Below are positions 7,687 to 8,290 of a stretch of 8,395 nt of DNA, piece by piece. This stretch comes from Escherichia coli (GTDB lineage Bacteria > Pseudomonadota > Gammaproteobacteria > Enterobacterales > Enterobacteriaceae): the NCBI RefSeq assembly GCF_003334815.1, contig NZ_QOWO01000065.1. The stretch is one strand, 5' to 3'. Every line of letters begins with the position of its first letter. Position 1 is the first letter of the stretch. The position numbers were made by a program, and so were the translations under genes. The notes below the pieces were generated by a model, which was not told where the DNA came from, did not search any database, and worked only from the letters and a program-made list of their open reading frames with translations.

Positions 7687-7968
7687 CTATGGCCACTTCT
7701 GTGCAGTATGCAATACACGCAGGATATACACTTTTCCCCACTGGCTATCGACCTCATAAACCAGAACAAAATGCGGGTGAATAACCAGTTCCCGGGTGCC
7801 TTCCACACGACCGTTGCGGCCTTTATACGGCTGCCCGACCAGGCTGCTGGCTGAATAACCAATCCGTTCGTCCAGTTCAATGGCGGCCATCAGGTTCTGC
7901 TCCGCAATGTACTCACGAATGCGCTTCCTGTCCTGGCTGGCCAGCATGGTCCAGAATATCTCCATCAT
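7687..7968 (-). CDS. parE: Type II toxin-antitoxin system toxin, ParE/RelE-fold (ParE-like)
   Basis: 93 aa, with a ParE-like profile (WTMLASQDRKRIREYI...GQPYKGRNGRVEGTRELVIHPHFVLVYEVDSQWGKVYILRVLHTAQ). The start overlaps the stop of the upstream antitoxin gene in an ATGA arrangement (7965..7968), the classic TA operon layout. Confidence 0.8.
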   Translation of the reverse strand: MMEIFWTMLASQDRKRIREYIAEQNLMAAIELDERIGYSASSLVGQPYKGRNGRVEGTRELVIHPHFVLVYEVDSQWGKVYILRVLHTAQKWP

Positions 7969-8234
7969 TTACCGGCGACCTTCCTGCTCATTTCATCCCG
8001 CCATGCAGCAGCAGAAGATTCGACCATGTCATGGGGAAGCACATCGCCGCGCTCGAGTTGCTGACGTCCTGCCGCAACCTGGTCACGGAACCAGGTATTA
8101 TGCTGCCGTTCAACGGTCTGGCGCATAAAATCCCGGATTAACTGGGAGCCATTACGGTCCATGCTTTTTGCAGCGGCCATAAAAGCATCCTTCAGTTCAG
8201 CGTCGATTCTTAAACTCATATTAACCTGTGCCAT
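7965..8234 (-). CDS. Type II antitoxin with ribbon-helix-helix DNA-binding domain (ParD/CopG-like)
   Basis: 89 aa. N-terminal RHH-like segment (MAQVNMSLRIDAELKDAFMAAAKSMDRNGSQLIRDFMRQTV), then a C-terminal region presumed to be toxin-neutralising. Strong SD (GAGGTG) 4 nt upstream of the ATG. Lies first in the operon and is translationally coupled to the ParE-like toxin. Confidence 0.75.
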   Translation of the reverse strand: MAQVNMSLRIDAELKDAFMAAAKSMDRNGSQLIRDFMRQTVERQHNTWFRDQVAAGRQQLERGDVLPHDMVESSAAAWRDEMSRKVAGK

Positions 8235-8239
8235 TTATC

Positions 8240-8290
8240 ACCTCGTCATTACTACGTATATACACAGTATATAACGATTCAGACATCGTC
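8240..8290 (-). promoter_or_regulatory. Promoter/operator of the antitoxin-toxin operon
   Basis: Immediately upstream of the antitoxin start: TACGTA palindrome (8253..8258) and two GTATATA repeats (8256..8262 and 8267..8273) spaced one helical turn apart; TATATA-type -10-like hexamers on the minus strand. This fits autoregulation by an RHH antitoxin binding repeated half-sites (inference). Confidence 0.4.

Follow-up and report, generated by a model that had tools for sequence, protein, structure and literature searches.

The yacA-yacB toxin-antitoxin (TA) module, published as ParDE-I, is present as an intact and ordinary copy of an already known system in an 8,395-nucleotide stretch of Escherichia coli DNA (contig NZ_QOWO01000065.1 of assembly GCF_003334815.1), referred to here as the window. 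We put the probability at about 0.9 that the module is yacAB/ParDE-I and that it works by the general ParE-type mechanism of post-segregational killing, autoregulated through a ribbon-helix-helix (RHH) antitoxin. The result places the window in the backbone of an IncFII plasmid, immediately downstream of its replicon, and yacAB explains one way in which the plasmid is retained together with its secretion-gene fragments flanked by insertion sequences (IS). Experiments have tied the module to the stability of plasmids and to tolerance of antibiotics and heat, and its presence is relevant to plasmid epidemiology. Its two genes and their junction are as follows, each open reading frame (ORF) being given with the length of its product.

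7687-7968, minus strand: yacB (parE-I), ParE-clade toxin, intact ORF of 93 amino acids counted from the first ATG
7965-7968, minus strand: ATGA overlap of the antitoxin stop codon (TGA) and the first toxin ATG, from the sequence and the ORF coordinates
7965-8234, minus strand: yacA (parD-I), antitoxin, ORF of 89 amino acids, named yacA by PGAP in near-identical plasmids

The genes show the type II TA layout that the initial annotation of this DNA had described: two small adjacent genes on the same strand, with the antitoxin first and with overlapping stop and start codons. The ATGA overlap implies that translation of the two genes is probably coupled. A second in-frame ATG (7965) directly follows the first ATG of yacB, and the start chosen by PGAP gives a product of 92 amino acids and an overlap of 1 nucleotide. 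Three homologous loci (L009, L011, and L013) have the same gene layout. Both proteins are full length in the window; YacB is 95-99% identical to close plasmid-borne YacB proteins and 85% identical to a divergent Salmonella copy, and YacA is 94-99% identical to its close plasmid homologues. Profile searches did not assign the pair to unrelated families, and the toxin gene carries no inactivating changes, so the description of the pair as a TA module survives both of the checks on which it had been made to depend. PADLOC matched neither YacA nor YacB to any defence-system family, and Rfam detected no RNA family at gathering score anywhere in the window.

Identity with the published module is supported by plasmid comparisons and by details printed in the original description. 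At least 5000 PLSDB plasmids match the 796 bp around the module, the best of them annotated as encoding type II TA toxin YacB and antitoxin YacA. The module proper occurs in 2313 PLSDB plasmids, mostly conjugative, from Escherichia, Salmonella, and Shigella, and hundreds of plasmids with annotated yacA and yacB match at 96-99% nucleotide identity. PGAP also uses these names in plasmids that are 99.6-99.95% identical to the window. Kamruzzaman and Iredell (2019) described ParDE-I from the IncI1 plasmid pJIE512b as well as from IncI and IncF plasmids, and noted that its toxin is annotated variously as YacB, RelE, and ParE (PMC6614396). The identification of the window module with ParDE-I rests on the promoter sequence, the quantitative reverse-transcription PCR (qRT-PCR) primers, and the Table S1 plasmids printed in that paper (PMC6614396). 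The published promoter sequence and primer ParDE-F-RT each differ from the window by one mismatch, whereas primer ParDE-R-RT has a perfect match in it at 8110-8129. Furthermore, CP014662, CP010207, and CP012498 occur both in Table S1 and among the plasmid matches found here, at 96-98% identity. Compared with ParDE-I of IncI1 and IncF plasmids, the window therefore holds the same module, in the same position beside the replicon of IncFII backbones, as an allelic variant with ∼97-98% nucleotide identity to the IncI1/IncF copies. A further difference is that the neighboring gene yacC is truncated in the window lineage by an IS91-flanking deletion.

The function of the module was shown in published experiments with the pJIE512b copy. 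Cloned with its own upstream region, ParDE-I fully stabilised otherwise unstable vectors (PMC6614396). The ParE-I toxin inhibited growth and lowered viable counts, and was neutralised by its antitoxin; it also caused ciprofloxacin-like filamentation and induced recA and lexA (PMC6614396). Gyrase was predicted to be the target of ParE-I (PMC6614396).

Both sequence and predicted structure agree with the initial annotation of YacB as a ParE-type toxin. The match of YacB to Pfam ParE_toxin (PF05016), with an E-value of 2.5e-16, spans the entire model, aligning residues 4-92 with model positions 1-89 of 89. An AlphaFold2 (AF2) model built with 14 homologues has a pLDDT of 91.6 and consists of a short strand (residues 3-6), an alpha-hairpin (helices 8-24 and 26-42), and a three-stranded sheet (59-64, 67-74, and 79-87). 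In a Foldseek search of the PDB with this model, the top matches are all ParE toxins, with TM scores of 0.80-0.91: E. coli O157 ParE2 (5cw7, 0.91), Mesorhizobium ParE (5ceg, 0.83), Caulobacter ParE1 (3kxe, 0.81), and Pseudomonas aeruginosa ParE (6xrw, 0.80). The corresponding scores for RelE, YoeB, and YafQ are 0.59-0.71. As modeled, YacB is a ParE-type fold that is nearer to ParE than to RelE structures. The histidine of its C-terminal 'RVLH' is conserved.

YacAB has the operon order of the canonical ParD-ParE systems (RK2; Caulobacter ParDE1, 3KXE; P. aeruginosa, 6XRW; Vibrio cholerae ParDE2, 7R5A) and shares their role in plasmid or chromosome maintenance and, as far as the YacA assignment below holds, their antitoxin design of an RHH N-terminus and a toxin-wrapping C-terminus. 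The toxins themselves have diverged in sequence: canonical ParE structures superpose on the YacB model with TM scores of ∼0.8 yet are only 18-25% identical to it, and 15% identity was reported between ParE-I and RK2 ParE (PMC6614396). Gyrase inhibition has been demonstrated for several of the canonical systems, whereas for YacB it is a prediction.

YacA can be divided provisionally into two parts.

YacA residues ∼5-43, N-terminal: probable RHH DNA-binding part, from weak RHH-clan matches and profile comparison
YacA residues ∼44-86, C-terminal: predicted helical toxin-binding part, from AF2 helices and a weak likeness to PaaA2

The RHH assignment is weakly supported, and all of the weak matches agree. 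Every sub-threshold match of YacA is to an RHH family and falls within residues 1-45, and a weak RelB_DinJ match also covers the N-terminus. Some members of the YacA family reach E-values ≤1e-3 for CcdA, RHH_9, or DUF6290. When a profile of 16 YacA homologues was compared with the PDB, two CopG-type antitoxins were matched weakly, P. aeruginosa ParD (6xrw_B) and 7etr_A, and hhalign of the YacA family against 6xrw_B, a solved RHH ParD, gave a probability of 85.8% over residues 5-71. There is a weak likeness between the C-terminal half and PaaA2, which pairs with O157 ParE2. RHH antitoxins acquire their fold on dimerisation, the strand being present only in the dimer, and their C-termini become structured on the toxin. 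The AF2 model of the YacA monomer (pLDDT 73.6), with an extended segment at residues 1-11 and helices at 12-24, 29-61, and 68-86, is consistent with toxin-wrapping helices that come after an RHH domain.

The region upstream of yacA contains the elements expected to start and control expression of the operon.

8239-8244, minus strand: Shine-Dalgarno sequence GAGGTG of yacA, 4 nucleotides before the ATG, invariant across divergent homologues
8253-8274, no strand assigned: candidate operator of TACGTA and GTATATA boxes, with repeats beyond chance and a conserved proximal box
8266-8292, minus strand: candidate promoter, with -10 hexamer TATACT (8266-8271) and weak -35 hexamer GTGACG (8287-8292) separated by a 15-nucleotide spacer

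The operator-like repeats named in the initial annotation, TACGTA and GTATATA-N4-GTATATA, are indeed present at 8253-8273. TACGTA (8253-8258) overlaps the 8-bp palindrome GTATATAC at 8256-8263. The two GTATATA copies (8256-8262 and 8267-8273) form a direct repeat with N4 spacing and an 11-bp period, and the second of them also forms a perfect 7-bp inverted repeat with TATATAC at 8257-8263, across a 3-nucleotide spacer. The count expected for GTATATA-N4-GTATATA is 0.01 per shuffle of the window, and every shuffle fell short of the number observed. Conservation among close plasmid relatives is uninformative, as it covers the whole upstream region. In more divergent homologues (a Salmonella Bareilly plasmid, and Brenneria and uncultured sequences at 61-63% protein identity) the upstream DNA cannot be aligned except for two blocks, whose distance from the ATG is constant: a GTAyATAC box, and CGTAAyGACGAGGTG, which holds the Shine-Dalgarno sequence. 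In six of the nine sequences the GTAyATAC box is an exact GTATATAC. One homologue (L011) also has two GTATATA boxes with an 11-bp period, on the opposite side of the conserved box. This pattern fits the GTATATAC boxes being a candidate operator for an RHH repressor. A reading of the ParDE-I paper turned up no binding or autoregulation data (PMC6614396). The -10 and -35 hexamers, both of them weak, were assigned in the present analysis, and lie inside the region printed there as a BPROM-predicted promoter (PMC6614396).

In the proposed mechanism, yacA and yacB would be co-transcribed from the promoter just upstream of yacA, and translation of yacB would be coupled to that of yacA through the ATGA overlap. 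The N-terminal RHH part of YacA would dimerise, bind the GTATATAC boxes over the promoter, and repress the operon, and its helical C-terminal part would wrap and neutralise YacB. After plasmid loss YacA would no longer be replenished and the more stable toxin would be freed, leading to DNA damage, SOS induction, filamentation, and growth arrest. Plasmid-free segregants would be removed by this post-segregational killing, and the adjacent IncFII replicon would be kept. DNA gyrase as the direct target, lability of the antitoxin, and operator binding with autoregulation are the elements of this scheme that we infer.

Several observations weigh against this reading. The RHH-clan matches of YacA all fall below curated thresholds (RHH_1, E 0.021; RelB, 0.046; RHH_9, 0.051), TIGR02384 scores 24.7 bits with a cutoff of 45.65, and a Foldseek search with the YacA monomer model returned only noise, with no meaningful structural match. 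The RHH antitoxin of the initial annotation thus holds as the family on which all weak matches and the hhalign comparison converge, and does not hold as an assignment at any curated threshold. Its placement of the operator over the likely -10 fares similarly: this is plausible with TATACT as the -10 hexamer, and a strict sigma-70 consensus scan of 7500-8395 found no promoter. The toxin allele in the window has V44, and the published experiments used a copy that is 96-98% identical. YacB passes the cutoff of TIGR02385 (RelE/StbE mRNA interferase) with 31.5 bits against 27.9, and O157 ParE2, the closest solved relative of YacB, is reported not to bind GyrA59. Finally, yacB is frameshifted in Shigella pINV (pWR100), and many database clusters of the toxin are cut short, lengthened, or joined to pieces of transposase (P0155, P0190, and P0189 among them, the last with an internal frameshift-like segment), so presence alone is not proof of function.

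Since the TIGR02385 cutoff is passed alongside the ParE_toxin match, sequence profiles alone cannot separate ParE from RelE; PF05016 itself spans the whole RelE/ParE superfamily, and many database entries are named 'mRNA interferase toxin RelE/StbE'. YacB might on these grounds be a RelE-type, ribosome-dependent mRNA endonuclease that kills by stopping translation, and E. coli RelB-RelE does share its superfamily and operon layout with YacAB, as well as sub-threshold RelB/DinJ matches on the YacA N-terminus. However, RelE superposes on the YacB model with a TM score of only ∼0.64, at 10% identity, and the RelE catalytic residues are missing: the C-terminal segment of RelE that carries R81 and Y87 has no counterpart in YacB in a three-sequence alignment, and R61, R81, and Y87 are reported absent from the ParE-I toxin (PMC6614396). 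The phenotype of the 96-98%-identical toxin, with recA and lexA induction and ciprofloxacin-like filamentation, is one of DNA damage rather than of translation arrest (PMC6614396). Fold, catalytic residues, and the published phenotype all speak against a RelE-type mRNase; this reading was rejected, and we regard it as extremely improbable. A ParE-fold toxin with a non-gyrase target, or one that engages gyrase unlike the RK2 and Vibrio ParE proteins, is a better candidate, though an unlikely one. The closest match to YacB in both sequence (32% identity) and structure (TM 0.91) is ParE2 of the PaaA2-ParE2 system (paaR2-paaA2-parE2 of an E. coli O157:H7 prophage; 5CW7, 5CZE). ParE2 and YacB share the C-terminal motif H..(K/Q)(W/F)P, and PaaA2 is weakly alike to the YacA C-terminus (W..R..V ... 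PHD.VE). PaaA2 lacks a domain for binding DNA, and its three-component operon is controlled by a regulator of its own, PaaR2 (PMC8630535); YacA, in contrast, has its own RHH-like N-terminus, making YacAB a two-component system. YacAB might then be a two-component fusion version of the paaR-paaA-parE type in which YacB bypasses the canonical ParE-GyrA route, an idea to which we assign a low probability. If it were true, one of the toxins met most often on plasmids of E. coli and Salmonella would have a target or binding mode other than the one assumed in the literature. Whereas ParE2 is reported not to bind GyrA59, ParE-I induces SOS, and SOS induction together with filamentation is the classic signature of gyrase poisoning. 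Moreover, other ParE toxins bind GyrB or require gyrase that is bound to DNA, so that a gyrase target is compatible with a lack of GyrA59 binding.

The remaining alternative accepts the family and questions the copy, which would be a decaying or silent remnant without a role in plasmid maintenance, as in Shigella pINV, where YacA is regarded as an orphan antitoxin. The pINV frameshift and the many truncated or fused toxin clusters suggest that yacB may often decay across plasmids while yacA is retained, and the DNA flanking the window copy has been heavily rearranged by IS91. Chromosomal yacA homologues of Erwinia sp. and Erwinia toletana (L008 and L010, at 1501-1770; 61-62% identity) have no downstream toxin gene and are followed after 130-240 bp by an unrelated gene; by this context they are orphan antitoxins. 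However, both ORFs of the window copy are full length and close to their plasmid homologues, its promoter and operator are one base off the published functional region, and the IS91 junction lies 98 bp past the toxin stop. A silent remnant is therefore very unlikely here, and an intact, plasmid-stabilising yacAB remains the favored reading.

The plasmid location that the initial annotation had suspected is borne out by near-identical IncFII plasmids. Positions 4597-8395 of the window are 99.95% identical to E. coli plasmid p2010C_5028-3, and most of the length of the window is 99.6% identical to pJNE25-005_2. Both are ∼70-kb IncFII plasmids with repA ∼0.9 kb upstream of yacA and with tap, copB, and hok beyond it; the ordinary IncFII order is repA - yacA - yacB - yacC, the last encoding a 3′-5′ exonuclease. 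Judged by these alignments, the window is IncFII plasmid backbone beside the replicon. The module had also been presented as an accessory that would help retain the linked secretion genes. This view was abandoned: yacAB occupies its usual site beside repA, and is therefore IncFII/IncI backbone DNA that was not recruited by the secretion genes, which are fragments here. The same site is occupied in thousands of plasmids that are without those genes, and recruitment of the module to stabilise them was rejected for this reason.

One further element lies on the replicon side of the operon.

8360-8374, minus strand: terminator-like consensus match, a GC hairpin with a T run behind it, separated by ∼70-90 bp from the candidate promoter of yacA on the upstream side

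The hairpin sits between the IncFII origin region and the yacAB operon, and may shield the operon from transcription arriving from the repA/oriR side. Inverted repeats ATGCCGC/GCGGCAT are present at 8299-8316.

On the opposite side, backbone DNA ends at an IS91 element.

5831-7588, plus strand: IS91 copy of 1758 bp, both ends present, boundaries set by alignment with a yacC-intact plasmid (L001)
7589-7652, minus strand: remnant of yacC (3′-5′ exonuclease) consisting of its first 21 codons and joined to the IS91 end; limit of the backbone DNA

The initial annotation put the IS91 end 165 bp from the module. Alignment with the yacC-intact plasmid moves the right end of IS91, with the sequence ...CCTATCGA(T), to 7588/7589, which is 98 bp from the yacB stop. 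IS91 does lie just downstream of the toxin gene and yacB is intact, as had been stated, but the locus as a whole was not spared, as the rearrangement flanking IS91 removed most of yacC. The transposase matches NF033538 (IS91 transposase) at 1.6e-82. Relative to the full-length copy in pJNE25-005_2, tnpA has a 71-bp internal deletion between GGTTAC repeats (near 7336-7341), because of which the transposase ORF is truncated (6240-7370, 376 amino acids) and tnpA is annotated as 'frameshifted' in a near-identical plasmid (L002).

Backbone sequence begins again at 7589, within yacC codon 21, and 1555 bp comprising a hypothetical gene and most of yacC are missing. The start codon of the remnant reads ATA in the window, and PGAP labels yacC in near-identical plasmids a pseudogene 'missing C-terminus'. 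GAAC is the usual IS91 target. The IS91 end abuts GAAC in the reference plasmid and CGAG in the window; this difference suggests that an adjacent deletion took place later, and that the junction is not that of a new insertion. The IS91/yacC junction is not contiguous in any PLSDB record, and the exact junction occurs only in two RefSeq E. coli plasmids.

Beyond IS91 lies an AT-rich block on the minus strand (297-4415), with 27-41% GC compared with 50-54% for the backbone. It contains the following secretion genes.

297-1538, minus strand: short TpsA protein of 413 amino acids, with the hemagglutinin N-terminal secretion domain only
1593-3326, minus strand: TpsB-like transporter gene
3586-3942, minus strand: N-terminal fragment of tssC, 118 amino acids
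3939-4415, minus strand: tssB, intact

These genes are remnants and do not make up complete secretion systems. Between the type VI secretion system (T6SS) fragment and IS91 there is a 182-bp direct repeat, whose copies at 4712-4893 and 5433-5614 are 93% identical and 721 bp apart. The overlapping ORFs with near-identical translations there are probably spurious.

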